64,000 bases of DNA from Escherichia phage EJP2. Numbering within the stretch: position 1 is the first letter of the stretch; every line of letters starts with the position of its first letter. The position numbers and the translations under genes were made by a program. This document shows, in pieces, positions 8,780-62,531 of this stretch. The notes below the pieces were generated by a model that saw only the letters and a list, made by a program, of their open reading frames with translations, was not told the origin of the DNA and did no database searches. The stretch is taken from sequence record OQ411014.1; one strand, written 5' to 3'.

Positions 8780-9286
8780 ATGAACTCCAGAATCTATAAA
8801 GAACTAACTAATATAATGTATGAATTTATGGATTTTGAAGTCCAGCTTGGTGTCATATGGGGTCACACCCAACCCCGTGCCACAGATTTGTTTGAAAACT
8901 GTGGCTATTTTGTTTCTGATTGGTCATGGTATGATGGTCACATTGTATCATTACTTTCTAAACAGTACCCAAATATTGAAATTGACTACGCTGCTTGTGC
9001 TGATTCTTATACATTTAGCAGTACTGAATTTCCTGGTTTGGCAATATGTATAGAAGAAGTTCCTAAGATAAGGACAGAGCCATCAGATCATATCTTTAAT
9101 AGAGTTCCAATTTATAAGGTACTTGAAAATAGGTCAGAAGAAGTACGTATTACTAATCCAACTCCAGAGTTCAGTGAGTTCGTACAAGAATTATGTCAGT
9201 GGGTGATGACATTTGACAAGTCAGAAGAACTTGATTATACTGTCAGTATATATGTACAAGAAAACATTGAGGTCACTGAACTATGA
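8780..9286 (+). CDS. hypothetical protein (168 aa)
   Basis: ORF track. Confidence 0.5.
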   Translation: MNSRIYKELTNIMYEFMDFEVQLGVIWGHTQPRATDLFENCGYFVSDWSWYDGHIVSLLSKQYPNIEIDYAACADSYTFSSTEFPGLAICIEEVPKIRTEPSDHIFNRVPIYKVLENRSEEVRITNPTPEFSEFVQELCQWVMTFDKSEELDYTVSIYVQENIEVTEL

Positions 9287-9720
9287 TCAATTATGAAGCA
9301 GTACTGAAATCATTTATACACTGGTTGAACGACGATATCGTATACAAAACCATTGTGCGTACTAGAAATGATGAATACATTCCTATTCAGTATTTGGATA
9401 AGAATGAAGATATCTTCTTAGATAATGAAAACCTACATTACAGTTATCAACACTGGGAATTGAACACAACTACCCAAGCTGAAAGCCTGACTTCGTACTT
9501 TGGTATTGATATAAATCGTGATGGTTCTATTGTTATATTATATAATCCATCAGGAAGTGTACGTGATAAAACTCCACCTGCACGATTTAATATTAGTACT
9601 ACAGAAGAGGAATTATTCCAACTTAGTACTATCCAAGAGGATTATGACGTAACGATGGAAGTACTGAAAGAGTTTGCTAAACTGCACGAGAAATATTTTG
9701 GGAACCTAGACGATGTGTAA
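9283..9720 (+). CDS. FFQ-motif family protein
   Basis: ORF track; C-terminal TTEEELFQLST. Confidence 0.55.
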   Translation: MINYEAVLKSFIHWLNDDIVYKTIVRTRNDEYIPIQYLDKNEDIFLDNENLHYSYQHWELNTTTQAESLTSYFGIDINRDGSIVILYNPSGSVRDKTPPARFNISTTEEELFQLSTIQEDYDVTMEVLKEFAKLHEKYFGNLDDV

Positions 9721-10159
9721 TAGATATAACATAAAGATGATCCAACGTGGATTTGATGTGTTTAAAAATATCATTGCAGCTTATAGGTTCTTGATGGAAG
9801 TTGATAATCTTTCTGAACTTGACTTATGTAATGATTTCTGTATAATTGATGATGCTGGTAATCGCAATACTGCATCAGCCACTATAGACGATGATAGAAT
9901 AATTTTCTCATTTGACGCTGCTGGTGTTATAGTTGATAACAATGAACTGATTTACACGGAATGTCTATATGATGATTCTGGACATAAAATCAAGTTCATC
10001 GTGAAGAATCCGAAATTCATTGTAAATGAAGAAACATTCTTCCAAGCGAGTATGTTGTATGATTTGTCTGATGTGAAAAGTTACGAATGGTTTGTAACTA
10101 TTATGCAAACATATGATTTCGTTATGGATTTCATGAAAATGGATTTTGAACAATACTAG
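9713..10159 (+). CDS. FFQ-motif family protein (tandem paralog)
   Basis: ORF track; C-terminal VNEETFFQASMLYDLSDV nearly identical to next gene. Confidence 0.55.
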   Translation: MCNRYNIKMIQRGFDVFKNIIAAYRFLMEVDNLSELDLCNDFCIIDDAGNRNTASATIDDDRIIFSFDAAGVIVDNNELIYTECLYDDSGHKIKFIVKNPKFIVNEETFFQASMLYDLSDVKSYEWFVTIMQTYDFVMDFMKMDFEQY

Positions 10160-10167
10160 GACTTAAA

Positions 10168-10572
10168 ATGATTGATCTTCAGAAACTGCTAATGGTTCAG
10201 TATGGTTTTGATGTGTTGTCGAGTAGTGATTTATCGAACGTGAATTTGAAAGATTTTGAATTCATTATCAGAGATGCAAACAATAACAGTACTGATGCTT
10301 ATGCGTCAATTCATAACGAAAGCGTTGATTTCACATTCAATGATTGTTCTGTGTATGTTGATGCTACAGAAATCGAAATCGTTTACCGTGTATATAGTGA
10401 AAACTACGCGGACGATATCGAATATATCCTTTGTATTGAAAATCCAACTTATATAGTGAATGAAGAAACTTTCTTCCAGGCTAGTACACTTCAAGATTTA
10501 TCAGAAGTTCCTGGGTATGAGTGGATTGTTTCTATTATGCAAATGTACAAAAATATTATTACTAAGGTATAA
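10168..10572 (+). CDS. FFQ-motif family protein (tandem paralog)
   Basis: ORF track; C-terminal VNEETFFQASTLQDLSEV; TAGGA RBS. Confidence 0.55.
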   Translation: MIDLQKLLMVQYGFDVLSSSDLSNVNLKDFEFIIRDANNNSTDAYASIHNESVDFTFNDCSVYVDATEIEIVYRVYSENYADDIEYILCIENPTYIVNEETFFQASTLQDLSEVPGYEWIVSIMQMYKNIITKV

Positions 10573-10573
10573 T

Positions 10574-11092
10574 ATGAAAGAGCTTATTGAACGTGTAGAT
10601 TTCTTTGAACTGATTGCATTGGAATTTGATCCAGAATGTACTGATATTCTTTCAGATGTACCAATCTTCCCTATTGAAAACGATGATGGTACTTCATCGT
10701 ACTTAGAAGATTACGAAGATTATTTGCGTAGCTTCTGTCCAACATCAAACGATAAAGTGCATCTCTTTACTGAAATTATTCATGTACAATACAATACAAA
10801 TAATAAAGAAATTGTATTATGTGCAATGGATACATTCAACAGTACTGAAGCTGGTATTGCACGTGAGTATGCTAAACTATATCTCATTGATACAGGTGAG
10901 TATTGTAAACTTACCATCAAGGAAAATTCATTTATATTCAATAACAAAGAATATAAGCTAGGTACTACTGAAGAAGAGAACTTCCAGATTTCATGTACTG
11001 ACATGGGTTACTTCAATAATGTAGTAAATGAAGTAAAGAAATTTATTCTTCAAGATATTGACAAGAATGGATTACCTGAGTATAATAAATAA
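10574..11092 (+). CDS. FFQ-motif family protein
   Basis: ORF track 10460..11092 trimmed to ATG after TAAGGT RBS (track start overlaps upstream gene by >100 nt); motif TTEEENFQISC. Confidence 0.5.
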   Translation: MKELIERVDFFELIALEFDPECTDILSDVPIFPIENDDGTSSYLEDYEDYLRSFCPTSNDKVHLFTEIIHVQYNTNNKEIVLCAMDTFNSTEAGIAREYAKLYLIDTGEYCKLTIKENSFIFNNKEYKLGTTEEENFQISCTDMGYFNNVVNEVKKFILQDIDKNGLPEYNK

Positions 11093-11101
11093 CAGAATTA
11101 C

Positions 11102-11191
11102 AGAAGGTTGGCAGAGCGGCTAAATGCACTCGCCTACTAAGCGAGCACTCGCTCCGGCGAGTCGAGGGTTCGAATCCCCCACCTTCTGCCA
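11102..11191 (+). tRNA. type II tRNA with unusual anticodon loop (apparent anticodon ACU; identity uncertain)
   Basis: Acceptor AGAAGGT/ACCTTCT, T-loop GGTTCGAATCC, long variable arm, encoded CCA; anticodon stem CTCGC/GCGAG with loop CTACTAA. Confidence 0.6.
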
Positions 11192-11204
11192 TATTAGGAT
11201 TTCA

Positions 11205-11594
11205 ATGATGACAATGCATGTGTACGATGAGTATGAAGAACGTATAAAACATGAAATCCAAAGTTATTTGGATGGTGTCAATAAAAAATTGAAATACAGT
11301 TCGGGTAAACGTTTTCAATCATTCACCCTAGAATACATGGATTGTGATGATTATAAACAACGCAGAATAACTATAAAAATTGCAGTTGATCCGAAGTTTA
11401 GTTGTGTGCATTCATCTTTACAGATAGATTCCACTTTTGGTGAAGATGAAGATCAATACTGGAGTGGTTTTTCCTATATACCAGAAAGTGAAGAAAAGCA
11501 CTTTCAAGAAACGTTACTCAATAAACAGATTTTAAGCTGGGATTTATTGCAGTACTTGATTGTTTTCTTCACTAAAATGCAAAATAAAGATTGA
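11205..11594 (+). CDS. FFQ-motif family protein
   Basis: ORF track 11124..11594 trimmed because track start lies inside the tRNA; ATG after AGGAT RBS; motif SEEKHFQETL. Confidence 0.5.
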   Translation: MMTMHVYDEYEERIKHEIQSYLDGVNKKLKYSSGKRFQSFTLEYMDCDDYKQRRITIKIAVDPKFSCVHSSLQIDSTFGEDEDQYWSGFSYIPESEEKHFQETLLNKQILSWDLLQYLIVFFTKMQNKD

Positions 11595-11641
11595 CTGTAC
11601 TGTAATGAACTAGTATTATATTACTTAGAGGATATAAAAAC

Positions 11642-12001
11642 ATGGCAGTTCAGGATTTTTCAAAATATGAAAAGTTTCTTAGAACATTTTTGAATTCCAA
11701 ATTAACATCTTACGATGCAGCACATAGTGAAGATAAACCAGCACGTCGCATTGTAAATGAAAATCAAGATTCATTTATTATTACTAATGATGAAATTATT
11801 TTTGAATCATTTGAAGATATAAAAAGACCTGCAAAACCAACTTTACAAGATATCGTAAATAGCTTAAATGCTAGATACATTACCTTTCAGTTGTGTAATG
11901 ATGAAGAAGATGAATTTCAGAAAAGTACAGTATATGAGAATATCTTTCCACATGAATTAAATTCTGTTATACTTGATATACTGAATAGTACTGAACAGTA
12001 G
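11642..12001 (+). CDS. FFQ-motif family protein
   Basis: ORF track; RBS AGAGGA; promoter TTGACT N17 TATTAT upstream; motif EEDEFQKST. Confidence 0.55.
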   Translation: MAVQDFSKYEKFLRTFLNSKLTSYDAAHSEDKPARRIVNENQDSFIITNDEIIFESFEDIKRPAKPTLQDIVNSLNARYITFQLCNDEEDEFQKSTVYENIFPHELNSVILDILNSTEQ

Positions 12002-44120: not shown

Positions 44121-45641
44121 ATGCCAAATGATATGAAACACAAGAATGGTGCATTAGTACAACACTCTGACAAATGGAGTGAAGCTAATCGTCGTAAGAA
44201 TTCACACAACGCAGGCCAAGGATCTCGTGGCTCTCGCAATCAGGGGACTGGTGAAGCTGGTAAAGCTAATACAGTTGCTTCTGGTGGTATGGACACTTCC
44301 AATATGTCTCAACATGAGAAACTAAAGTACTTCAACAGTTTAGGACTCCTAAACCCTACACAGAAGAAGCAATTACAAGACATGGACGCTGCTGCATCTG
44401 CACCAAAAGAACAGCCACAGCAAGCTCCTAAAGCTGCTCCTGCTGGTAATCCTGTCAAAGAGCTATCTGATAACTTAGGTCGTATCTTTGCACAGAAGCC
44501 TAATCTAATTCAAGGTATTGTAAAAGAACTACAAGCAGTACCGAAGGAAGAGCTAAAGAGTAAAGCACAAGCTGTACTTGATGCTATGAAAGGCAATCGC
44601 AGTACTGAACCAACCGAAGTATTCAGTACTATCATGCGTGCACTTCAAGCTAAACCACAAGCTGCTCCAGCACAGAAAGCACCTAAGATGGACAGTGCAC
44701 AGGACATGTCAGATTTGTTTGGTAAAGTTGGTGCTGAAGGTAAGAACAACGCACAACAAGTCAAGAACGTCCAAGCTAAGATTATTGATCGTTTAGGTGA
44801 TAATCAAGACAAGACTAAGCGGGCATTTGACGCATTGAACAAAGCACTTGAATCTTATGTTCCTGGTGAGAAAGACAAGTTCCAGACCATCATGAACGCA
44901 GTCTTTGGTGAAATGAAGAAGTACGAAGCAGAGCACGGTGAGAAGGTATCATCTGATGGCTATATGATTCGTAAAGACGAAGAAGGTGCAGTAGACCAGA
45001 AAGATGCTCCTAAAGAGCAAGAAGACCTACCTGATACAGTTGATATGGATGGTTACATTTCTCGTCCAGATGAATATGACTTCGGTTCAGACAAAGAAGG
45101 TTATGAGTATGCTATGGACATTTATCGTTTCCTAGCTAAGAACTATGATTATGCTAACAAGTACGTAGATCAGTTTGTCAGTGCTTGGGATAATTACAAA
45201 GATAAAGGTTATGACTTCCCTGCGGAAGCTGCATTCTTTGAGTTAGGTAAACTACTCCAGAAAGATGGTGTAGAGATTGGCTCGAAAGAAGATACTTCTA
45301 GTCTAGATGCAGAATTGGCAAAAGACCGTCAAATGACACCAGGTTCTAAAGCTGAATTGAATAAGCTCCTATCATGGATTGTTGACATTGGTAAAAATGC
45401 TGGTAAAGATAACAAGAGTATCAACCGCAGTATTTCTTGGATCAATAATAAAATTGATAACAACGGGCGTAAGCTACAGAAAGCATGGAGTGATTTAGTC
45501 AATGGTGCAGATGAGATCGATATTGATTCTCCTGAAGCATATGAGTATGCGATGACGACTCTAGACAATTCCTTCCAGGACTATGAAAATGGTAATCTAA
45601 CTGCTAGTGAACAAGACATCATGCGTTCACACGGAAAATAA
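44121..45641 (+). CDS. large A/K/Q/P-rich protein (506 aa)
   Basis: ORF track; GGAGAG RBS; low-complexity N-terminal half; host-like codon usage. Confidence 0.65.
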   Translation: MPNDMKHKNGALVQHSDKWSEANRRKNSHNAGQGSRGSRNQGTGEAGKANTVASGGMDTSNMSQHEKLKYFNSLGLLNPTQKKQLQDMDAAASAPKEQPQQAPKAAPAGNPVKELSDNLGRIFAQKPNLIQGIVKELQAVPKEELKSKAQAVLDAMKGNRSTEPTEVFSTIMRALQAKPQAAPAQKAPKMDSAQDMSDLFGKVGAEGKNNAQQVKNVQAKIIDRLGDNQDKTKRAFDALNKALESYVPGEKDKFQTIMNAVFGEMKKYEAEHGEKVSSDGYMIRKDEEGAVDQKDAPKEQEDLPDTVDMDGYISRPDEYDFGSDKEGYEYAMDIYRFLAKNYDYANKYVDQFVSAWDNYKDKGYDFPAEAAFFELGKLLQKDGVEIGSKEDTSSLDAELAKDRQMTPGSKAELNKLLSWIVDIGKNAGKDNKSINRSISWINNKIDNNGRKLQKAWSDLVNGADEIDIDSPEAYEYAMTTLDNSFQDYENGNLTASEQDIMRSHGK

Positions 45642-51950: not shown

Positions 51951-52016
51951 AGTGTTTGACAATCTTAGTATCATCTAGTATGATGTTTGTACTATAATGA
52001 TATAAGGAAATACAAA

Positions 52017-52262
52017 ATGAAATTTATTAGTGCAATTATTCTTTCGATGACTTTATTGGTTGGATGTTCAACTGATTTCATGAAAGAAGCATACGTTGGT
52101 GAAGTGAATGGACGTACAATCGTCTTCTTCAAAGATATCCAACGTAACGGTATGCAGTACTACACTCCGCAGTTTGCATCTGTATGCCGTGATATGTTCG
52201 GGGTAAGTTCACCATGTAGGATAAAAGAAACTGCAATCAAAAACATTCGTCCATACAAATAA
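52017..52262 (+). CDS. lipoprotein (81 aa)
   Basis: ORF track 51987..52262 (TTG) trimmed to ATG after TAAGGAAA RBS; signal MKFISAIILSMTLLVGCS with lipobox LVGC. Confidence 0.55.
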   Translation: MKFISAIILSMTLLVGCSTDFMKEAYVGEVNGRTIVFFKDIQRNGMQYYTPQFASVCRDMFGVSSPCRIKETAIKNIRPYK

Positions 52263-52273
52263 GGAAACACAAT

Positions 52274-52597
52274 ATGTTTATTCTTTCTTTCCCACTGTTC
52301 GTTCTGCTTATCTGTTATATTGCAGTAGTAGCAGTAGGTTCTAAGTACAAAGATCTCCCTGAATATCTGAACATTGGTGACGGTCAAACAAATTCGCTAC
52401 GCTTTGTTCTGGGTGCAACGTTTGTATCATTAGGGTTCCAAATTCTTGGTCTGTTCTTTGCGTTTGCAATTAGTCTAGGACTGTTGTTTTCAACTATTGC
52501 TTCAGTCCTTGCGTGGTGGTGGTTGTTTGAAACATTCCAGTCTGGTAAGATCAAGATCTGGTACAAAGATGCTAAAGCATATTTCGATCAGGACTAA
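52274..52597 (+). CDS. multi-pass membrane protein (107 aa)
   Basis: ORF track; TAAGGAAA RBS. Confidence 0.5.
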   Translation: MFILSFPLFVLLICYIAVVAVGSKYKDLPEYLNIGDGQTNSLRFVLGATFVSLGFQILGLFFAFAISLGLLFSTIASVLAWWWLFETFQSGKIKIWYKDAKAYFDQD

Positions 52598-52615
52598 TTG
52601 ATTCATTGTTTCATC

Positions 52616-52645
52616 GGGGTTAACATGTGTTAGCCCTTTTTTGTA
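52616..52645 (+). terminator. rho-independent terminator (variant of hairpin family)
   Basis: GGGGTTAACA-TGTG-TTAGCCC hairpin followed by TTTTTT. Confidence 0.5.
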
Positions 52646-52652
52646 GGTAATA

Positions 52653-53036
52653 ATGCGAGCGATGATTAGTATAGATAAGAAAGGTGCAACTCGGATTGTA
52701 TTCTTGACGAAGAGATACGCAATCAAGATACCATCTTTCTATTCGTGGAAAATGTTCTTACATGGATTGATTGCTAATCTAAATGAAAGAGCATTCAAAG
52801 AGTACTCATGTTCTCCTGGTTCTGGATTATGCCCTACTGTATATGCGTCAGGAACGGGTCTAATAAGCATTCAGAAGAGATGTTTACCAGTACAGCACAG
52901 AGGTATGTTCTGGGTGGAATTGGCTCACCTAGCGTGCAGTACTGTACTACATGAGGACTTCTTTTATTCGGATGCGAAGCCTGAGAACTTCGGGTATATA
53001 GATGGGAAGTTAGTAAAATTGGATTACGGAGATTGA
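52653..53036 (+). CDS. protein kinase-like protein, N-lobe plus catalytic loop only (127 aa; possibly truncated or split)
   Basis: ORF track; YAIKIP (VAIK-like lysine), HEDFFYSDAKPENFGY (HRD-LKPEN-like catalytic loop), KLDYG (DFG-like); frame ends right after DYG. Confidence 0.5.
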   Translation: MRAMISIDKKGATRIVFLTKRYAIKIPSFYSWKMFLHGLIANLNERAFKEYSCSPGSGLCPTVYASGTGLISIQKRCLPVQHRGMFWVELAHLACSTVLHEDFFYSDAKPENFGYIDGKLVKLDYGD

Positions 53037-53037
53037 T

Positions 53038-53226
53038 ATGCTAATTTACAATAACAATGGTATTAGAGTACTTCAGCATGAATACTTACAAGTGTTTCAT
53101 GTACAGAAGTTCATGGAGGGTGATAATCCTCGGAGCTATGGTCGTACGATGGATTACTTCACTGTAAAGGAATGCTATAGTATTCAAGAAGTTCGTGAAG
53201 TTGTATCTGAATTACTTGAAGAATAA
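53038..53226 (+). CDS. hypothetical protein (62 aa), possibly C-terminal part of split kinase-like gene
   Basis: ORF track; begins 2 nt after previous stop in another frame. Confidence 0.4.
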   Translation: MLIYNNNGIRVLQHEYLQVFHVQKFMEGDNPRSYGRTMDYFTVKECYSIQEVREVVSELLEE

Positions 53227-53239
53227 TATTAGAAAGGGG

Positions 53240-53269
53240 TTGACTTCGGTCGGCCCTTTTTGTTATAAT
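53240..53269 (+). promoter_or_regulatory. terminator-promoter module (GGGGTTGACTTCGGTCGGCCC, TATAAT)
   Basis: -35 TTGACT in hairpin, T-run, -10 TATAAT. Confidence 0.55.
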
Positions 53270-53301
53270 CATTACATCGACAACCAATAGGAAATCTAAA
53301 A

Positions 53302-53964
53302 ATGCCAATTCCATTGTTTCATGAAAGTAATACATTCACTATCTACAAAAATAATGGCGAACTGAAGACTATTCACTTCACTGGTCACAAAGTAGGTTTG
53401 TATTACAAGTTGTATTCAATCCTACGTAAGAGTCACAACTTCAATATGCCTTCAGTAACTGTACGTGATATTACAGGGCGGGTATTATCCAATGGAAACT
53501 TCTTGGATATCTATTTTGAGTTGATTGATGTATTGAAAGCAGAACACAAGTACTCAATCATGACGACCAATAGTGTTGGTGAAGATCTATATCACTTCCG
53601 TGATGAACCTGAAGGTGTACTGCAACAACTGAAGCATCTGAGAGATACATATACTAAAAATGGTGATCCGCGTCGTTTTGAATATCACACAGTAGTACGA
53701 AGAGATGACTCATCGTTTATTCGTAACAAGTTGGATTATTTGATTATAGAATACCAGAAAATTGCTGATGCAGAGAACTCAGAGAAAGCTGGCGAAACCG
53801 ACTGCATTGGTGAAACTGGCGAAATGGGGTTAGGTGTGTACCTGGAGTTCGATGAAGTAGTGAACGATATGCGTGAGCAAATCAAATCAGGTACTGACAA
53901 AGAGAAGATTGAAGCTAAAGCAGTACTGTCATATATCGCTACTAAAATAGCACTGAAACAGTAA
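53302..53964 (+). CDS. hypothetical protein (220 aa), paralog of 48230 gene
   Basis: ORF track; TAGGAAA RBS; shared C-terminal block. Confidence 0.6.
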   Translation: MPIPLFHESNTFTIYKNNGELKTIHFTGHKVGLYYKLYSILRKSHNFNMPSVTVRDITGRVLSNGNFLDIYFELIDVLKAEHKYSIMTTNSVGEDLYHFRDEPEGVLQQLKHLRDTYTKNGDPRRFEYHTVVRRDDSSFIRNKLDYLIIEYQKIADAENSEKAGETDCIGETGEMGLGVYLEFDEVVNDMREQIKSGTDKEKIEAKAVLSYIATKIALKQ

Positions 53965-53974
53965 AATAAAAGGG

Positions 53975-54004
53975 TTGACTTCGGTCGGCCCTTTTTGCTA
54001 TAAT
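53975..54004 (+). promoter_or_regulatory. terminator-promoter module (GGGTTGACTTCGGTCGGCCC, TATAAT)
   Basis: Same architecture as 53240 copy. Confidence 0.55.
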
Positions 54005-54034
54005 CATTTCAACTTCTGATGAAAGGAAAATTAT

Positions 54035-54283
54035 ATGTTCGCACTACGCCACAAAGAAACAAAGAACTTCATGTGTATTGATACACAGTGGGATTGCTTT
54101 GGTAGTACTGAAGTATTGGAAGAACACGCTGAGAACGTCTTTGTTGTTAGTGAACGTTCATTGTTGGAAGCACTAATTGAGGACTTCAATGCTGGTACTA
54201 ATGCATTCTCTCTGAACTTTCCGGTTGTTGCAGATCCAGAAGCATTTGTTATGTACGAAATTGTAGAACTTACTGTGAAATAG
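54035..54283 (+). CDS. hypothetical protein (82 aa)
   Basis: ORF track; AAAGGAAA RBS. Confidence 0.5.
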   Translation: MFALRHKETKNFMCIDTQWDCFGSTEVLEEHAENVFVVSERSLLEALIEDFNAGTNAFSLNFPVVADPEAFVMYEIVELTVK

Positions 54284-54300
54284 TATCATTGGAGATAACC

Positions 54301-54597
54301 ATGAAAGCACTGACCGCCGTAGAAATCAAAGAGCAATACAAAGATTTATTCGAGTTTAAACACAACGGTGAAGAATTCAAACGTAGTAGTACTGTACGTG
54401 ACTTCTTGAACAAACTCTTCTGTACTAAGTTCAAAGCTGCGTACATTACTATGCCTGAGCGTACTTCAAGTGCAGAAGATATCAAGAAGTTCGGTTTAGG
54501 TTGGGATGCACAATCAATCATCCTGGTGAATGCAGATGAAGAGCTAGTGTACTTGACTAACTCCGAGTGGGCTTCTTTCATGTATCTTCGTAAATAA
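54301..54597 (+). CDS. hypothetical protein (98 aa)
   Basis: ORF track 54289..54597 (TTG) trimmed to ATG after GGAGA RBS. Confidence 0.5.
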   Translation: MKALTAVEIKEQYKDLFEFKHNGEEFKRSSTVRDFLNKLFCTKFKAAYITMPERTSSAEDIKKFGLGWDAQSIILVNADEELVYLTNSEWASFMYLRK

Positions 54598-54606
54598 GGA
54601 ACTATA

Positions 54607-54789
54607 ATGAAACTGAAACGTTATGACCGCAATCGTATTATGGATGCTTTGTATCGTGAAGAAATTTCACTCAATAAGGTGAAAGTGTACTTTATGTTAG
54701 AAGGACGGCTTCCAGCACGTAAAGCTAAACAGTTAGCTATTGAACTGTTGAACGAAGGTATTGAGTACTGGCATTATGACGGATATTGA
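54607..54789 (+). CDS. hypothetical protein (60 aa)
   Basis: ORF track; TAAGGAA RBS. Confidence 0.45.
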   Translation: MKLKRYDRNRIMDALYREEISLNKVKVYFMLEGRLPARKAKQLAIELLNEGIEYWHYDGY

Positions 54790-54800
54790 TTTGTGAAATA

Positions 54801-54856
54801 AAAGGTTGACTTCGGTCAGCCTTTTTCGTATTATGTACTCATCGAAACGAAGGAGA
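54801..54856 (+). repeat. repeated ~55 bp promoter-leader cassette, copy 1 (hairpin with TTGACT, TATTAT, leader, AAGGAG)
   Basis: Near-identical to copies at 56641 and 56937. Confidence 0.6.
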
Positions 54857-54865
54857 TATAAAAAA

Positions 54866-55102
54866 ATGAAACTATCTTTTATACGATTGGGTCAATTCTT
54901 CGGTACTAATGTTATAACTTTACAACAAATTGCAGATAATACATCTCTAACGATTCAAGAAGTACTTGACTTGGATGACATAAATTACGATACTACATGT
55001 ATCGAGTACAAAGAAGGTCTTATCGAAAAGGATAAGATTCAGGCTAAAATTAATGGTGCTGGAAAAGTTCAGTACTGGAAGGGAGTGTTAAGTAATGTGT
55101 AA
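54866..55102 (+). CDS. hypothetical protein (78 aa)
   Basis: ORF track 54806..55102 trimmed: track start is TTG of the promoter -35 and the first 20 codons translate the cassette; ATG after AAGGAG RBS. Confidence 0.5.
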   Translation: MKLSFIRLGQFFGTNVITLQQIADNTSLTIQEVLDLDDINYDTTCIEYKEGLIEKDKIQAKINGAGKVQYWKGVLSNV

Positions 55103-56192
55103 CTTTGATGTTTTAGATTGTTTTTCTGTAGATGAAATTATTTATGAACCCAAATCACATAATTCAGTATCCCCAGGGCAATATGAAAAGAAAATAACAG
55201 AGTTATTTTCATTAAATGATCATAATGTTGTTTTTATCGGATTCAATATGAAAACCGCCAATGAATGGCAAGCGGGTGATACTAAAGTACATTTTAAACT
55301 CGTCAACAAATATTACGAGGATATTTTTTCTGATGTGACAATAGAAAAGATTATCAAAAAATTTAAGAAAAAAACCTACAAACCTAAACATAAAAAATTA
55401 ACAATGGAAATTATTGAATATCAGGCCAAGGCTGTATCTTACTTAAAAGGCCATCGGATTATATCATTTGGTCCATTTGATGGTGCACTCACTAAAATTG
55501 AGATGGAATGTCTAATGGATTCACATACGTGGTCTACCAGTTACAATTCATATGTGACAAATGACAAAGGTTGTGTTAAATGTGGAATTGTAGTGACCTC
55601 TGAGTTTCACCGGACAAATCACGATGATGTGAACTTGTTCTTAAAAGAAAATGGAGATATTAACAATTATGATTTATATGAAGAATTCATATATTCTAAT
55701 AATTTAACAATAATAAAAAGAATTTGCAAAATATGTAATCATGGTAAATGTGGAGAATGGAAAACGTCTTATGAATGCATTAAGAATCGTGATCATCAGT
55801 GTCCAGTATGTAAGACAACTGAAGCTCGGTGCATCAAACGTGATCTAGATCCGATTTTTAGTGGGTTCGGTGTGGTAGAATGTGAAAAAAAATATGATGA
55901 TTGTAGGATGATTAATCATTTACGCTACGACCGCTTCATCCCGAAACTCAACATGTTATTTGAATATGATGGAGAGCAACATTTCAATAAGAGGAACATT
56001 CGTTGGCATGGTGAAAGTGGTGAAAAACGTGATCAAATAAAAACAGAGTTCGCAATCAACAACGGTTACAACTTCATTAGGATTGCATACTATGAAGACC
56101 ACGTTGCAGTACTGGAATCTTTCCTTAAACTCATAGAAGAGAACCCAGGAAAGCAAATCGTACAGATCTATGGTGATGTGAAAATTATCTAA
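55095..56192 (+). CDS. PD-(D/E)xK nuclease-like protein (Vsr/DUF559-like), possible homing endonuclease
   Basis: ORF track; C-terminal FEYDGEQHF..RDQIKTEFAINNGYNFIRI resembles E-x-DG-x-x-H..RD..GW-x-x-R nuclease core; Cys-rich middle; markedly AT-rich. Confidence 0.5.
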   Translation: MCNFDVLDCFSVDEIIYEPKSHNSVSPGQYEKKITELFSLNDHNVVFIGFNMKTANEWQAGDTKVHFKLVNKYYEDIFSDVTIEKIIKKFKKKTYKPKHKKLTMEIIEYQAKAVSYLKGHRIISFGPFDGALTKIEMECLMDSHTWSTSYNSYVTNDKGCVKCGIVVTSEFHRTNHDDVNLFLKENGDINNYDLYEEFIYSNNLTIIKRICKICNHGKCGEWKTSYECIKNRDHQCPVCKTTEARCIKRDLDPIFSGFGVVECEKKYDDCRMINHLRYDRFIPKLNMLFEYDGEQHFNKRNIRWHGESGEKRDQIKTEFAINNGYNFIRIAYYEDHVAVLESFLKLIEENPGKQIVQIYGDVKII

Positions 56193-56201
56193 AATAAAAG
56201 G

Positions 56202-56230
56202 TTGACTTCGGTCAGCCTTTTTGCTATTAT
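56202..56230 (+). promoter_or_regulatory. terminator-promoter module (GGTTGACTTCGGTCAGCC, TATTAT)
   Basis: -35 in hairpin, 17 nt spacer. Confidence 0.55.
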
Positions 56231-56366
56231 ATCAGTACTATCAATGTGAAAGAGTTCGATAAACATCTGAAGAAGAATGGCTTCGATACGAACAACTTTG
56301 CTATCAGTAGTATTACTGAAATCATGATTCAATACAACATTATTGTAGATACATTACGAGGGTAAA

Positions 56367-56633
56367 ATGAAACCAATCACAACAACACAGAGTACTAACC
56401 TAACGGTTTTACATGATGGTTTAAAAGGTACAGTACGTGATCTTCTGAACTTCATTGATAGTATTCAAGGTGATACCGGATACTGCATTTATACTACTAT
56501 CATTCCTGGTGGTACAGAACTGTACTTCACCAATATGGAAGTATCGGAATCGGGTGAAACTGATGATTCATTCCAAGAAGCCATCCAACAATTTCAGGAA
56601 TCCTTAGAGGATTTAGGTTTTACGGTACAATGA
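56367..56633 (+). CDS. hypothetical protein (88 aa)
   Basis: ORF track; GAGGG RBS. Confidence 0.5.
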   Translation: MKPITTTQSTNLTVLHDGLKGTVRDLLNFIDSIQGDTGYCIYTTIIPGGTELYFTNMEVSESGETDDSFQEAIQQFQESLEDLGFTVQ

Positions 56634-56640
56634 CGAAAAA

Positions 56641-56698
56641 AAGGTTGACTTCGGTCAGCCTTTTTCGTATTATGTACTCATCGAAACGAAGGAGATTA
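56641..56698 (+). repeat. repeated promoter-leader cassette, copy 2
   Basis: AAGGTTGACTTCGGTCAGCCTTTTTCGTATTATGTACTCATCGAAACGAAGGAGAT. Confidence 0.6.
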
Positions 56699-56700
56699 TT

Positions 56701-56832
56701 ATGTATATTTTAATAGTGGAGTACTGCTTCTATACTCTATGGATTTACTTAGGTTGTCGATATGGCTTACCTTTATTTGGTAAGTACTTCTTAGATTCTG
56801 GTTCAGACAAATATGGCGAGAGAAATGACTAA
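56701..56832 (+). CDS. small hydrophobic protein (43 aa)
   Basis: ATG directly downstream of cassette RBS; uninterrupted frame found by hand. Confidence 0.35.
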   Translation: MYILIVEYCFYTLWIYLGCRYGLPLFGKYFLDSGSDKYGERND

Positions 56833-56936
56833 AGGAATGCAGAAGTTAAACTGTTCGTGAAAACTCAAGACTGGCCTGAAGTTGTACAGCAAGTAATATG
56901 TTCATTCACTAAGACTGAACTAATATAAGAAAAAAT

Positions 56937-56990
56937 GGTTGACTTCGGTCAGCCTTTTTCGTATTATGTACTCATCGAAACGAAACGTAC
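56937..56990 (+). repeat. repeated promoter-leader cassette, copy 3
   Basis: Same cassette; explains identical spurious N-terminus MTSVSLFRIMYSSKR of track ORFs 54806 and 56939. Confidence 0.6.
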
Positions 56991-57004
56991 TAAGGATTAA
57001 GAAA

Positions 57005-57775
57005 ATGAACCGCACAGAAAAAGCAATGCAAATCGAAAAGAACTTCAACTCCATGATGGCTGCTCTTGAATGTCTTCTGGATACCCAAGCTAACTCAATC
57101 AACTCTCTGATTGTTTCTGGTAAAGGTGGTGTTGGTAAAACTTATAACGTAGACAAACGTCTGCAACAAGCAGATAACAACTACGAAATCGACTACAAAA
57201 AGATTTCTGGTAAAGTAACTACTATGGGTCTGTACGAAGCACTGTATCACTCTCGCCACGCTGCTTCAGTACTGTTACTCGATGACGTTGATATCTTCGG
57301 TGACGAAACTAATATCGACCTCCTTAAAGCAGTACTGGATACTTCCGATAAGCGTGTTGTTTCTTATGCAACTTCCGGTAAGCACTTGGACGCGATGGGT
57401 ATTCCTAAGCAGTTCGAGTTCCGTGGTAAAGTGATCTTCCTGACGAACAAAAACCTGTCACAGATTGCTAAAGGTAAAAGCAGTTTAGCACCACACATCG
57501 ATGCTCTGATTACTCGTAGTATCTTCGTGGACCTGCAACTGTTCAGCAACGAAGAAGTAATGATTCACATCGAAAACGTTATGTCCAAAACTAACATTCT
57601 GGAAAACCAGTTCGTTAGTCCAGAAGGTGCAGGTCACATTCTGAACTTCATGCTCAAGAATGAAGATCGTCTGCGTAGTCCTTCTCTGCGTATGCCAGTA
57701 CTGATCGCTGGCTTGTATAATAAGTTCCCGTTTGATTGGGAATCAATGGCTGAAAACATGTTCCTGGAGAAATAA
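57005..57775 (+). CDS. P-loop ATPase with deviant Walker A (ParA/MinD-like)
   Basis: ORF track 56939..57775 trimmed to ATG after TAAGGA RBS; Walker A SGKGGVGKT, Walker B-like VLLLDDVD; host-optimal codon usage. Confidence 0.6.
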   Translation: MNRTEKAMQIEKNFNSMMAALECLLDTQANSINSLIVSGKGGVGKTYNVDKRLQQADNNYEIDYKKISGKVTTMGLYEALYHSRHAASVLLLDDVDIFGDETNIDLLKAVLDTSDKRVVSYATSGKHLDAMGIPKQFEFRGKVIFLTNKNLSQIAKGKSSLAPHIDALITRSIFVDLQLFSNEEVMIHIENVMSKTNILENQFVSPEGAGHILNFMLKNEDRLRSPSLRMPVLIAGLYNKFPFDWESMAENMFLEK

Positions 57776-57776
57776 T

Positions 57777-58154
57777 ATGCAAATGTTCTTGACACCTTTT
57801 GGTTCAATCTGTTTAGTACTGGAAACTTTCCTATCTGTTGCAGTACTATGTATGCTGATTGGGAAGTTCTTTAATGCTCGCCCATTCAATAAGTACTATG
57901 ATGCAATTTATGATCAAAGTGAAAGTGAAGGCGTAGCTATCTTTCAATTGCTGGTGGCTATCGTAATCGCTACTATCCTTGCATGGATTGGTATCATCGG
58001 GGAATTCGAACTCCTAACAGAATTTTCAGTTGTAGCAGCTTCTGTGTGTACTGCCTTTACAATTCTGTACTTTACAATCTGTGCAGTGGATGCTATTATT
58101 CCTTATATCAAAAACGTGCACCACAAAATCGTAAAGAAAACCAACGGGGAATAA
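57777..58154 (+). CDS. multi-pass membrane protein, tandem family member 1
   Basis: ORF track 57732..58154 trimmed to ATG after GGAGA RBS; C-terminus HHKIVKK. Confidence 0.5.
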   Translation: MQMFLTPFGSICLVLETFLSVAVLCMLIGKFFNARPFNKYYDAIYDQSESEGVAIFQLLVAIVIATILAWIGIIGEFELLTEFSVVAASVCTAFTILYFTICAVDAIIPYIKNVHHKIVKKTNGE

Positions 58155-58155
58155 A

Positions 58156-58284
58156 ATGAAACCTGAGCAGTGGATTATTGATGACATGCGTTCTATGCGA
58201 GCAATTAAAGAACGCACATACGTACAAGAACAATATCTCGAACTCTTGATGTGGTACGTAAAAGTACTGAACTCTAAGGAATAA
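58156..58284 (+). CDS. small hypothetical protein (42 aa)
   Basis: Uninterrupted frame found by hand; GGGGA RBS. Confidence 0.35.
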   Translation: MKPEQWIIDDMRSMRAIKERTYVQEQYLELLMWYVKVLNSKE

Positions 58285-58286
58285 TT

Positions 58287-58634
58287 ATGTCTGCATATAC
58301 TATGATTACATGTTCTAATCTTGTTAGTATTGCGTACTTTATGTACGTCGCACTTATGGTTGTATGTTGGTACTTTCGCTTGTCAAAGGTTTATTGTGCA
58401 ATTGTCCCAAGTTCTGAATTTGGGATGTTCTTTATAAAATTCATGTTCATTGTTACATCAGTAACGAACTTCCTACAACTTATGGACTCCTTCTTCCCAG
58501 GTACTGGTGAGCCAGTAGCGTTTGCATTCTATATGAACGTTGCAATTGCCGGAGCTTTATTAGGTTGGTTCTTACTGTGTAAAGTAGTGAATTACCTTTT
58601 GTACATCCGAGCAGAACATATTCCACGGAGATAA
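58287..58634 (+). CDS. multi-pass membrane protein, tandem family member 2
   Basis: ORF track; TAAGGAA RBS. Confidence 0.5.
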   Translation: MSAYTMITCSNLVSIAYFMYVALMVVCWYFRLSKVYCAIVPSSEFGMFFIKFMFIVTSVTNFLQLMDSFFPGTGEPVAFAFYMNVAIAGALLGWFLLCKVVNYLLYIRAEHIPRR

Positions 58635-58637
58635 TAA

Positions 58638-58985
58638 ATGAATTCGTTCTTTTCTTCATTAGCAGCATTAGCAACAGAAAACACACTATACACCATCTTC
58701 ATTTGTACTCTATCATTATGTTATGGTGCAATGTGGTTCACTAATCATCGCTGGTTCCATGTTATTGATAAGAAGTTCGGTATAGTAGTATTTGCAATAC
58801 ATTTAGCAACACTAGTAGCAGTACTGACGTGGGTGATTGATACTCTAGCTCCAGGAAAGCCCGTTGGGATGGTTATCAACTTCATGTATTGGGTTGTGAT
58901 GGGTGTATTTGTTGGTGGTGTATTCATCTTTGAATATATGTCAAAGATTCGTAAAAAATATTTTATTGATAAAGGAAACTACTAA
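58638..58985 (+). CDS. multi-pass membrane protein, tandem family member 3
   Basis: ORF track. Confidence 0.5.
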   Translation: MNSFFSSLAALATENTLYTIFICTLSLCYGAMWFTNHRWFHVIDKKFGIVVFAIHLATLVAVLTWVIDTLAPGKPVGMVINFMYWVVMGVFVGGVFIFEYMSKIRKKYFIDKGNY

Positions 58986-59323
58986 TGTTTTATTTCTGTT
59001 CAGCAGTAATGCTATTGTGGATCTTCACATGGGTTAGTTGGATCTTCTGTCTAGATATCGCCAAATGGTTCGACAAACAACTCAAATACACTACATATGA
59101 CTTTGATGGTAAGATCTTTATCATAATCGTTTCGGTTTTTGCTGTCATCGCTGAAGTTCTTGCGTGTCTTGGTATCTTTGTGATGCACGGTAAGGACTCA
59201 ACGGTACTATTGGTAATTGCTACACTAATTACTAGTACTACCTTGATATCTTATGTAGTTTCGTTTATAATCTTTTGTGTCGTCCCCTGGAGGGATAAAC
59301 TAGCACGTAAGAAAGGATATTAG
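58985..59323 (+). CDS. multi-pass membrane protein, tandem family member 4
   Basis: ORF track. Confidence 0.5.
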   Translation: MFYFCSAVMLLWIFTWVSWIFCLDIAKWFDKQLKYTTYDFDGKIFIIIVSVFAVIAEVLACLGIFVMHGKDSTVLLVIATLITSTTLISYVVSFIIFCVVPWRDKLARKKGY

Positions 59324-60565: not shown

Positions 60566-61243
60566 ATGCATAAGAAGACACAAAAGAAGAAATCCCGTAC
60601 ATTCAAACATTACTTACACAGTTTTAAGTTCTGGCGGTACAGGTCTAAGTTATATGAGAAGATGTATGATGTTGGGCGTGAACCTTGGCAGTACTATTCG
60701 ACTTACTCATTGGCAGTTCGAGAAAACGATTATGGCATTTCTAAGAAAGTACATAAGCTATTAGAAGCCTGTAATGTACGTTTGGACTATGCAGAAGTAC
60801 TACATGACTTTGTGTACATGTACATGGCAAAACCAAATGACCAAATGCACTACACAAGTGGTGAATTTATACACAGCAATACACAGTACGAATTCAATAT
60901 CATGGGGGATAAATCCTTTATGATCCGTGAGTACAATCGTGCTGATCCACAGGTGTATATTTCGTACAAGAAAGGTTCAGTAAAGGTAGAACTAAAGTAC
61001 GCATACAGTGCTAGACCTAAAAATAATGATGAGCTACAAGAAGCTCTCACTAAGCACGTACAATCTGAACTAACCGAAGCGGAGTTATTTCAGTACACAA
61101 TTATGTACGAACAGTTCGAGAGACTCATTTTCATGTTGAATCTGCTTAAACCTTTATGTATATTCAAAGATACTAAAGTAAATGCCTATTCGTTGTACAC
61201 ACTATTCAGTACTCACGAGACTTACAAAGGACAATTACAATGA
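60566..61243 (+). CDS. large FFQ-family paralog (225 aa)
   Basis: ORF track; GGAGA RBS; motif LTEAELFQYTIMYEQ. Confidence 0.6.
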   Translation: MHKKTQKKKSRTFKHYLHSFKFWRYRSKLYEKMYDVGREPWQYYSTYSLAVRENDYGISKKVHKLLEACNVRLDYAEVLHDFVYMYMAKPNDQMHYTSGEFIHSNTQYEFNIMGDKSFMIREYNRADPQVYISYKKGSVKVELKYAYSARPKNNDELQEALTKHVQSELTEAELFQYTIMYEQFERLIFMLNLLKPLCIFKDTKVNAYSLYTLFSTHETYKGQLQ

Positions 61244-61860
61244 AGCTAACAGCCTTACAGAAGCACTATCAACAAACGTTCAATTTCTACCGAACTCGAT
61301 ATCATCGCACACACGGAGCAACAATCTATCGCCCTCGTAGATTGGGACGTGTACGTAAAGGAGGTAAGTTCTTCAAAAAGATCTGTAACGAACTGAACAT
61401 CAAATGTCATGGACTGTACGGTTCTAATTCTAATGGCAAAGTAAACGTAAATGAAAACCTTCGCAGTGGTACACGTATTGATACGGTTGCTGGGAATATC
61501 TACACATCCGAAAGCCGGATGTATTTCCCTAAAGGTAAGTCCGAAGATTCTCGCTATGTATTGTGTTATGATTCTTGTGAGTCACCGCTTAGTATCGAAG
61601 ATATCATGGTACTTGATTATAAGTTCGAATACCAGGATGATTCGGTCACTAGTGAAGAACTAACCGACATCGTTCAGAAGCACCTAAAAGGTACTCTAAC
61701 GGAGGCAGAACTATTTGTAGCCCTACTATACCATGAAGAGGTAATGCAGCTTCTGGCTGGTGCTGAGATGCTTTATAAGCTATTTGGATACGTACACAAA
61801 GAGCAAGTATCACTCATTGACATTTATGTTTCAGTACTGAAGAGTGAGCAATCTAAATGA
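61240..61860 (+). CDS. large FFQ-family paralog (206 aa)
   Basis: ORF track; motif LTEAELFVALLYHEE. Confidence 0.6.
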   Translation: MKLTALQKHYQQTFNFYRTRYHRTHGATIYRPRRLGRVRKGGKFFKKICNELNIKCHGLYGSNSNGKVNVNENLRSGTRIDTVAGNIYTSESRMYFPKGKSEDSRYVLCYDSCESPLSIEDIMVLDYKFEYQDDSVTSEELTDIVQKHLKGTLTEAELFVALLYHEEVMQLLAGAEMLYKLFGYVHKEQVSLIDIYVSVLKSEQSK

Positions 61861-62531
61861 AGATGAACCGTTTTGGGAATCACTACAACAAGTACTTCAA
61901 ACATATGCACTACGTACAAGCAGAATCTACTACTTCTGCGTATGTATATAACCGTAATGCAACCAGACGGACTCATATGCGTAGGTCGTTTTCTGCTGTA
62001 CTGAAGAAGTTCATGCGAGCTAAAGGATTTATGTTCAAAAAAGATACACGGTCTGGATGGTCTTGGGAGAACCATAACACATCACCATCATCTGTGTATA
62101 ATATAGGTCTAACATATTTCAGTTTTATGATTGATGATATTCCTTGTTTGGTTTCGTATTATACATATCCATATACCTACAATGTCACTGTATATGTGAA
62201 TTATATATCAGTCGATGATGATGAAAAATTACTGAAACAAAACGTTATTCAAGTTGGTATATCAAATGAAGTATACGCCGCCCAGGATAAAGAGTTGGAG
62301 GATATTCTTAGGAAAAAGTTACCAAAGTACCATGAAGTACTGACGGATGAAAAGATGTTTCAGTACAGTACAATGATACCGAATGCAGATGTATATTGGA
62401 AAGCTAACAATATATATCATAATATTACACAAATGATAATGAGTAGTTATCATGAGAACATACATCACCCATACAATAAAAAGAATAAAACAATCATTCA
62501 TTTATTGAATTGTATCTTGAAGGAATTATAA
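61857..62531 (+). CDS. large FFQ-family paralog (224 aa)
   Basis: ORF track; motif LTDEKMFQYSTM. Confidence 0.6.
   Translation: MKMNRFGNHYNKYFKHMHYVQAESTTSAYVYNRNATRRTHMRRSFSAVLKKFMRAKGFMFKKDTRSGWSWENHNTSPSSVYNIGLTYFSFMIDDIPCLVSYYTYPYTYNVTVYVNYISVDDDEKLLKQNVIQVGISNEVYAAQDKELEDILRKKLPKYHEVLTDEKMFQYSTMIPNADVYWKANNIYHNITQMIMSSYHENIHHPYNKKNKTIIHLLNCILKEL

Follow-up and report, generated by a model that had tools for sequence, protein, structure and literature searches.

Escherichia phage EJP2 is a RaK2/121Q-like jumbo phage, and endonucleases are absent from the text of its genome paper (PMC10213699). Here, we describe a putative free-standing homing endonuclease gene at positions 55095 to 56192 (plus strand) of a 64,000-nt stretch of EJP2 DNA (sequence record OQ411014.1), which we call the window and by which positions are numbered. 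An earlier note on the window, made from the letters alone, had proposed an AT-rich, mobile nuclease gene at this site. The open reading frame (ORF) starts with ATG, is full length and free of frameshifts, and encodes a protein of 365 amino acids (aa), in which the C-terminal block singled out by that note, LFEYDGEQHF...RDQIKTEFAINNGYNFIRI, occupies residues 288 to 331. The protein matches "hypothetical protein EJP02_481" of EJP2 at 100% identity, the exact match was confined to a single 349-kb contig, and the nearest relative thereafter is 45% identical. No second copy of the gene was found in the 64-kb window.

RESULTS

The nuclease gene lies in a two-gene unit

No promoter cassette directly precedes the nuclease gene. 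Immediately upstream is a conserved 78-aa ORF (54866 to 55102, plus strand; phrog_34150), the last codons of which contain both the ribosome-binding site of the nuclease gene and its ATG, such that the start codon and the stop codon of the ORF overlap in ATGTGTAA. The 78-aa ORF is itself preceded by a predicted promoter-terminator cassette (cassette 1, 54796 to 54865, plus strand), with a hairpin at 54800 to 54825 that has a UUCG loop and is followed by a U run, a -35 element (TTGACT, 54806 to 54811) inside the stem, a -10 element (TATTAT, 54829 to 54834), and a Shine-Dalgarno sequence (AGGAG, 54851 to 54855). A second cassette (cassette 2, 56193 to 56245, plus strand) starts 1 nt past the nuclease stop codon and has its hairpin (56196 to 56221) 4 nt past it, with -35 and -10 elements at 56202 to 56207 and 56225 to 56230. 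Thus, the unit between the two cassettes consists of two genes, because the left cassette precedes the 78-aa ORF and the nuclease ATG overlaps the stop codon of that ORF.

The cassettes recur in the window. The sequence GGTTGACTTCGGTCAGCCTTTTT occurs nine times with three or fewer mismatches, always on the plus strand, versus zero expected, and the perfect copies are at 54804, 56200, 56643, and 56937. Each cassette copy combines an A-rich run, an 11- to 12-bp hairpin with a UUCG loop followed by a T run, TTGACT within the stem, and TATTAT or TATAAT. The -10 element lies 17 to 18 nt downstream of the -35 element, and TTGACT-17-TATTAT gave 10 to 11 matches out of 12 in a promoter scan. The hairpins had predicted energies of -14 to -17 kcal/mol and z scores of about -5 (-14.2 kcal/mol and -5.6 for cassette 1). 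These features suggest that the cassettes are sigma-70-like promoters combined with terminators.

The cassettes resemble the PeSL promoter-terminator cassettes that lie at the boundaries of insertions, deletions, and replacements in T4-like phages (Arbiol et al. 2010, PMC2839356; Comeau et al. 2014, PMC4122927). As in PeSL, an A-rich stretch is combined with a predicted stem-loop terminator and a strong predicted sigma-70-like promoter, and the elements are repeated in one orientation between small genes, exactly at the boundaries between close relatives. Moreover, the stem of the EJP2 cassettes (A3-4 G3 ... C3 T3-4) resembles that of the PeSL nt-1 type. Unlike PeSL of T4-like phages, the EJP2 cassettes reside in a RaK2/121Q-like jumbo phage, carry the -35 element inside the stem, and have a UUCG loop.

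The nuclease gene does not appear to be borne on an intron. An Rfam scan of positions 52000 to 59000 (E ≤ 0.1) gave no match and no intron, and the flanking genes are distinct from one another, with start and stop codons of their own. We conclude that the gene is free-standing, as the earlier note had held. The note had also placed the gene between copies of a repeated promoter cassette; the nine cassettes are real, but the left copy belongs in front of the 78-aa ORF.

The nuclease gene is AT-richer than its neighbors. Its GC content is 32.8%, versus 38 to 42% for neighboring genes and 36.9% for the window (standard deviation of 2.0 among windows of equal size; 4th percentile). The low GC content is confined to the 5' 850 nt (31.8%), and the nuclease-coding 3' end has 36.4%. 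To call the gene conspicuously AT-rich was nevertheless an overstatement, because its GC content is only the 13th lowest of 128 ORFs and its GC at third codon positions the 27th lowest, and the non-nuclease ORF arrays at 9.3 to 12 kb are lower still. These arrays (9283 to 12001), together with those at 60566 to 62531, consist of tandem paralogous ORFs with motifs such as NEETFFQAS and LTEAELFQY. Low GC is no marker of nuclease genes in EJP2, since several ORFs of the arrays have less GC than the nuclease gene, and we rejected AT-richness as a strong sign of foreign origin.

EJP02_481 is predicted to join zinc-ribbon modules to a Vsr-like nuclease domain

EJP02_481 is, as modeled, a series of three tandem modules of about 60 aa and of the CapR/DUF723/DUF4379 kind, two of them with Cys ligands, followed by a Vsr-fold nuclease. 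In the full-length AlphaFold2 model (predicted local distance difference test [pLDDT], 80), three beta-rich modules stand ahead of the nuclease domain. The first is an N-terminal alpha/beta module that lacks zinc ligands and ends in a linker helix (55095 to 55445; aa 1 to 117); it forms part of the hypervariable, low-GC DNA-binding region and is covered by few relatives. The second is a CapR-like zinc ribbon (55446 to 55589; aa 118 to 165) with C139, C160, and C163, of which C139 is nearly invariant among aligned relatives; the Pfam CapR match to this module (E = 0.0015) falls below the curated cutoff. The third is another zinc ribbon (55620 to 55814; aa 176 to 240) of the pattern C211-x2-C214 ... 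C236-x2-C239, recognized from the alignment, the model, and Pfam matches of homologs. The remainder (55815 to 56189; aa 241 to 365) is a predicted Vsr-like PD-(D/E)xK nuclease domain.

Conservation is concentrated in the nuclease domain. In an alignment of 29 relatives, the N-terminal part was variable and contained CxxC pairs, and the C-terminal 125 aa were well conserved. Eight residues were invariant and are present in EJP02_481: D279 (codon at 55929 to 55931), E290 (55962 to 55964), D292 (55968 to 55970), G293, H296 (55980 to 55982), D313 (56031 to 56033), K316 (56040 to 56042), and R329. Pfam families matched by the relatives included DUF4379 (19 relatives), CapR (11), and DUF723 (10), and weak DUF559 matches were found in just 3 of the 29 (best E, 0.008). 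The C-terminal tail (...KQIVQIYGxVxI) occurs in two variants that are distributed as a mosaic among relatives.

The assignment of the nuclease domain to the Vsr type is made at the level of the predicted fold, and the sequence models of Pfam and the PDB are silent. Foldseek with the full-length three-domain model gave just weak matches to proteins resembling double-stranded RNA-binding domains, at low TM-scores, and was uninformative; therefore, the C-terminal domain was modeled alone. That model had a pLDDT of 93.4, and E. coli Vsr was its top Foldseek match (probability, 0.91).

The "HNH endonuclease" label given to relatives in PHROG 559 and RefSeq appears to be a misannotation. EJP02_481 matched phrog_559 ("HNH endonuclease"; E = 7.6e-26) and phrog_9084 ("homing endonuclease"; E = 7.6e-13), but an HNH Pfam match was found neither in EJP02_481 nor among the 25 Pfam families with the most hits in the 29 relatives. 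We judged the label wrong because there is no HNH motif and because the nuclease domain is predicted to have a Vsr fold.

The family is large and includes members borne on introns. Searches with tblastn found relatives in 298 phage records, mostly of Firmicutes phages and 121Q-like jumbo phages, and an exhaustive search returned 5251 clusters at E ≤ 1e-3 (416 at E ≤ 1e-10), the majority of which match residues 117 to 345. Among the intron-borne members matched were AR9 g079 (E = 1e-9), which sits within the three-exon joined coding sequence g078 and bears the annotation "group I intron VSR," and PBS1 gene 271, with E values of 1e-9 to 2e-11 for the pair. The search also matched Enterococcus phage iF6, in which two "VSR endonuclease" genes lie between pieces of the terminase large-subunit gene, and Bacillus phage Mawwa, in which one family gene is likewise placed; the intron RNAs went undetected when these iF6 and Mawwa loci were scanned with Rfam.

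EJP02_481 closely resembles a group that has already been described. Merk et al. 2025 (PMC12350094) reported, as a "large unrecognized outgroup," proteins in which three to five CapR/DUF4379/DUF723-like domains precede an EDxHD/Vsr-like domain. Like these proteins, which include the intron-borne AR9 and PBS1 genes, EJP02_481 has several modules of about 60 aa and a C-terminal Vsr-like domain of about 100 aa, and to AR9 g079 and PBS1 gene 271 the similarity is direct. Unlike the intron-borne members, the EJP2 gene is coupled to a small upstream ORF, with no group I or group II intron, and is found in a gram-negative jumbo phage (Asteriusvirus); its product is only about 30% identical to theirs.

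Likeness to other nucleases is more partial. I-Bth0305I (PDB 3R3P) is the prototype of the EDxHD family, which, according to the paper that established it (PMC3239194), also has free-standing members, among them Hef of T4-like phages. I-Bth0305I shares the conserved Asp, His, and Asp and the order of N-terminal DNA-binding modules and C-terminal nuclease. Unlike I-Bth0305I, which has NUMOD/helix-turn-helix elements and resides in a recA intron, EJP02_481 has zinc-ribbon CapR-like modules; the two are 16% identical in a fold alignment, and PDB sequence and profile searches gave no match between them. E. coli Vsr (PDB 1CW0) is a single-domain repair nickase for T:G mismatches with a zinc site of its own, whereas EJP02_481 has long DNA-binding arrays, is 10% identical to Vsr, and may have Asp at the position of Vsr His64. 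Finally, CapR-type zinc-finger arrays are beads-on-a-string DNA-binding repeats in T5orf172 homing endonucleases of ICP1 and other phages (Barth et al. 2023, PMC10448857). EJP02_481 is like those enzymes in its zinc-finger repeat arrays, in domain swapping, and in its position at genetic-exchange boundaries beside conserved genes, and unlike the T5orf172/GIY-YIG endonucleases in its Vsr-like nuclease domain.

One slot holds different nuclease-like genes in related phages

The position of the nuclease gene in EJP2 is a variable slot in Asteriusvirus. The 78-aa ORF is 80 to 86% identical in 25 of 28 matching records (60 to 80% in the other three) and was kept in all of the related genomes checked except Turkey5. 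The right border of the slot is a conserved P-loop ATPase gene (57005 to 57775; phrog_1250), which was kept in all of them. Nucleotide similarity among relatives ends at about 55093 to 55112 and resumes at 56931, and the gap between the 78-aa ORF and the ATPase gene varies from 69 to 2529 nt and is filled by different nuclease-like genes.

The occupants fall into several types. Vsr-like genes occupy the slot in EJP2, vB_Ec-M-J (MJ), CRJP21, and metagenome contig L016 and, as judged by coordinates, in Sharanji, G17, JP4, TH47, SHEFM2K, and BAU.Micro_ELP-22. Genes of the phrog_681 type, which have a different C-terminal domain, occupy it in 121Q, PBECO4, phAPEC6, and Turkey5. Turkey3 has two genes without PHROG or Pfam matches, the first of which is weakly similar to the PBECO4 occupant (26%, E = 0.001). 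All 11 slot occupants whose composition was examined are AT-richer than their own loci. The phrog_681 occupants (L004, 3784 to 5247; L005, 3730 to 4869; L006, 3730 to 5616; L001, 4841 to 6424) share the C-terminal pattern ...YIH..GIT...E..H...DGYTETF. Pfam gave no match to the C-terminal domains of 121Q gp221, PBECO4 gp306, and the Turkey5 protein, and their likeness to T5orf172/GIY-YIG is by eye only.

The junctions of the slot are precise. Different genes begin at the identical ATG in EJP2, MJ, PBECO4, phAPEC6, Turkey3, and L016, within the conserved junction ...GGAGTTTTAAGTAATG. In the Salmonella phages SD-15_S21 and SD-6_S16 the slot is empty, and the same conserved sequence continues directly into the ATPase cassette (...AAGTAA|AAAAAGGGTTGAC); the junction in these two records corresponds to the precise absence of the nuclease ORF. 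In the empty allele of SD-15_S21 (L008, 2501 to 2767), the small ORF has lost its stop codon and extends across the terminator hairpin to give 88 aa.

Within the slot, the two ends of the gene differ in their relation to the backbone. The 3' 240 nt of the EJP2 gene and the following cassette are 85 to 87% identical in nucleotide sequence to MJ and L016 and are thus backbone-like (window, 55950 to 56230; L002, 4001 to 4203; L016, 4165 to 4444), whereas the 5' part cannot be aligned. This difference points to a swapping of DNA-binding arrays.

The nuclease gene and its neighbors also occur in other combinations. In the 324-kb metagenome contig L014 (3269 to 6376), from a more distant jumbo phage, a 78-aa-type ORF and a Vsr-like gene are followed by a homolog of the EJP2 gene at 44121 to 45641 and not by the ATPase gene; thus, the pair can sit in another downstream context. 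The ATPase exists in the genus as two alleles, 87 to 91% and about 54.5% identical to the EJP2 protein. In Erwinia phage Hallingskeid, a Vsr-like gene of 338 aa immediately precedes the gene for an ATPase with 86.7% identity to that of EJP2 in amino acid sequence (81% in nucleotide sequence; window, 57005 to 57775; L010, 6001 to 6771), and the surrounding genes are just 27 to 49% identical. The pattern resembles the coconversion of markers beside homing endonuclease genes, as reviewed for T4 (PMC2988022), and is offered as an analogy, not as proof.

EJP2 and its closest relative differ at cassettes

Turkey5 is the closest sequenced relative of EJP2 and matches positions 54023 to 54851 at 97.3% and 56191 to 56690 at 98.8%. 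In between, it lacks the 78-aa ORF and carries an unrelated 527-aa gene with a weak match to phrog_681 ("endonuclease"). A diverged ortholog was considered and rejected: BLASTP against the 527-aa protein found no homology, and the Turkey5 gene is therefore a replacement. The breakpoints fall at 54851/54852 on the left and 56190/56191 on the right, both of which we assign to cassettes.

Small modules to the right of the nuclease gene are also bounded by cassettes. The first (56246 to 56633, plus strand) comprises an ORF of 39 aa with a GTG start (56246 to 56365) and one of 88 aa (56367 to 56633) and is common to Turkey5 at 98.8% nucleotide identity. Cassette 3 and an EJP2-only module with a 43-aa ORF (56701 to 56832) follow at 56636 to 56928 (plus strand), and cassette 4 and the ATPase gene follow at 56930 to 57775 (plus strand). 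A 238-bp segment (56691 to 56928) is missing in Turkey5 and has a perfect cassette copy at either end, as in a classic insertion or deletion mediated by cassettes. In the two events that separate the phages within 2.2 kb, four of four ends are in cassettes.

Gene content upstream of the slot differs as well. In Turkey5 (L001, 3553 to 3987), 121Q, PBECO4, and others, the pyrimidine-dimer glycosylase gene denV is located upstream of the slot, at a distance of two to three genes. No denV gene was found anywhere in the EJP2 window, in which unrelated ORFs of 62 and 220 aa are present instead (53038 to 53964).

DISCUSSION

EJP02_481 is probably a free-standing homing endonuclease that joins CapR-like DNA-binding modules to an EDxHD/Vsr-like nuclease domain. 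The predicted fold and the comparison with relatives support this reading, and the same comparison supports mobility of the gene. Presence is sporadic: the exact protein was on one contig, and close relatives have alternative alleles or an empty one. The domain architecture is that of a family with intron-borne members, and the invariant catalytic residues are in place.

Several results weigh against this reading. At the level of sequence, a Pfam hidden Markov model scan of EJP02_481 gave neither a DUF559 (PF04480) nor a Vsr match, PDB searches with the protein and two profiles returned DUF4379-type zinc ribbons or noise and no Vsr, and hhalign of the C-terminal profile with E. coli Vsr was not significant (probability, 0.13), the single aligned stretch pairing D279 with Vsr D51 and D292 with H64. 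Thus, of the Vsr/DUF559-type core that the earlier note had seen in the C-terminal block, the fold has held up in structural comparison and the sequence family has not. AT-richness is not specific to the nuclease gene and is weak evidence. The empty allele comes from one Salmonella lineage and may reflect secondary deletion or low quality, since the SD assemblies are 310 to 326 kb with fragmented genes. Apart from that lineage (two records checked), every relative has the slot filled, and naive targets may be rare. Cleavage, a target site, and a homing event were not observed. Finally, both Turkey5 breakpoints lie in repeated cassettes, at which plain homologous recombination would suffice and a nuclease would not be needed.

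How EJP02_481 might promote its own spread can be outlined from the arrangement of the locus. Transcription would start at the early, sigma-70-type promoter of cassette 1 (54806 to 54834), with the nuclease gene as the second cistron after the 78-aa ORF, and would end at the hairpin just past the nuclease stop codon. Translation of the nuclease may be coupled to that of the 78-aa ORF through the overlap of start and stop codons. The modules would recognize a long site in the DNA, which the nuclease domain would cut with Mg2+, probably as a dimer by analogy to I-Bth0305I. The site would lie near the slot in coinfecting relatives that lack the EJP2 allele, either in the 3' end of the 78-aa ORF or in the ATPase gene, and recombinational repair from the EJP2 copy would then transfer the gene and flanking markers into the rival genome. 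The ATPase gene is therefore a candidate either for the target or for a coconverted marker. Independently, recombination between the repeated cassettes could provide a second, passive route by which whole modules move. This route explains the difference between EJP2 and Turkey5 better than does the simple invasion of an intergenic site that the earlier note had envisaged.

Could the passive route be the only one? The nuclease gene might be cargo, moved just by recombining cassettes in the manner of PeSL shuffling, and the protein might cut rival or host DNA or act as a regulator like the domesticated CapR. Not only the Turkey5 breakpoints but also both ends of the 238-bp EJP2-only module lie in cassettes, denV and other neighboring genes have been swapped nearby too, exchange through PeSL elements is on record for T4-like phages (PMC2839356), and CapR itself is a domesticated relative of nucleases made from such modules. 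However, the left junction in most relatives falls at the ATG within the 78-aa ORF and not in a cassette, and what the empty allele lacks is just the nuclease ORF. Moreover, the catalytic residues are intact, members of the family are borne on introns, and the defense-system models of PADLOC matched neither the nuclease nor the 78-aa ORF. We consider it unlikely that EJP02_481 is cargo without a part in its own movement.

A further alternative is that the locus is no simple selfish insertion. The 3' end of the 78-aa ORF, with its ribosome-binding site and ATG, and the downstream cassette could form a dedicated landing pad at which the DNA-binding arrays of a resident nuclease are constantly exchanged among Asteriusviruses. 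The locus would then diversify cutting specificity for competition between phages (marker exclusion) and would target the two divergent ATPase alleles. The backbone-like 3' end (85 to 87%) next to 5' 850 nt that cannot be aligned fits such an arrangement, as does the alternation of two different nuclease folds in the slot. We hold this view as a speculation, and a rather doubtful one.

Homing endonuclease genes often degenerate after fixation, and I-TevIII is reportedly an example of a defunct one (PMC2790892). That EJP02_481 is a decaying remnant of this sort, fixed in EJP2 and persisting without cutting, seems improbable, for while the first N-terminal module lacks zinc ligands and the CapR match falls short of its cutoff, the ORF is full length without a frameshift, all of the invariant catalytic residues and both Cys4-type modules are retained, the models are confident, and the translational coupling signal is conserved.

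We therefore return to a homing endonuclease as the preferred reading of EJP02_481. As such, the protein adds a rather typical member to a family that is already known, and the current understanding of homing endonucleases is unchanged. Nonetheless, a "hypothetical protein" of a candidate therapeutic phage is given a putative function, and the widespread "HNH endonuclease" label of the family is apparently wrong. The main added value is the definition of a jumbo-phage hot spot, in which one start codon serves unrelated nuclease genes that take each other's place and an apparent empty allele exists, together with cassettes that extend PeSL-like elements and gene shuffling from the T4-like phages to jumbo phages of the 121Q/RaK2-like group.

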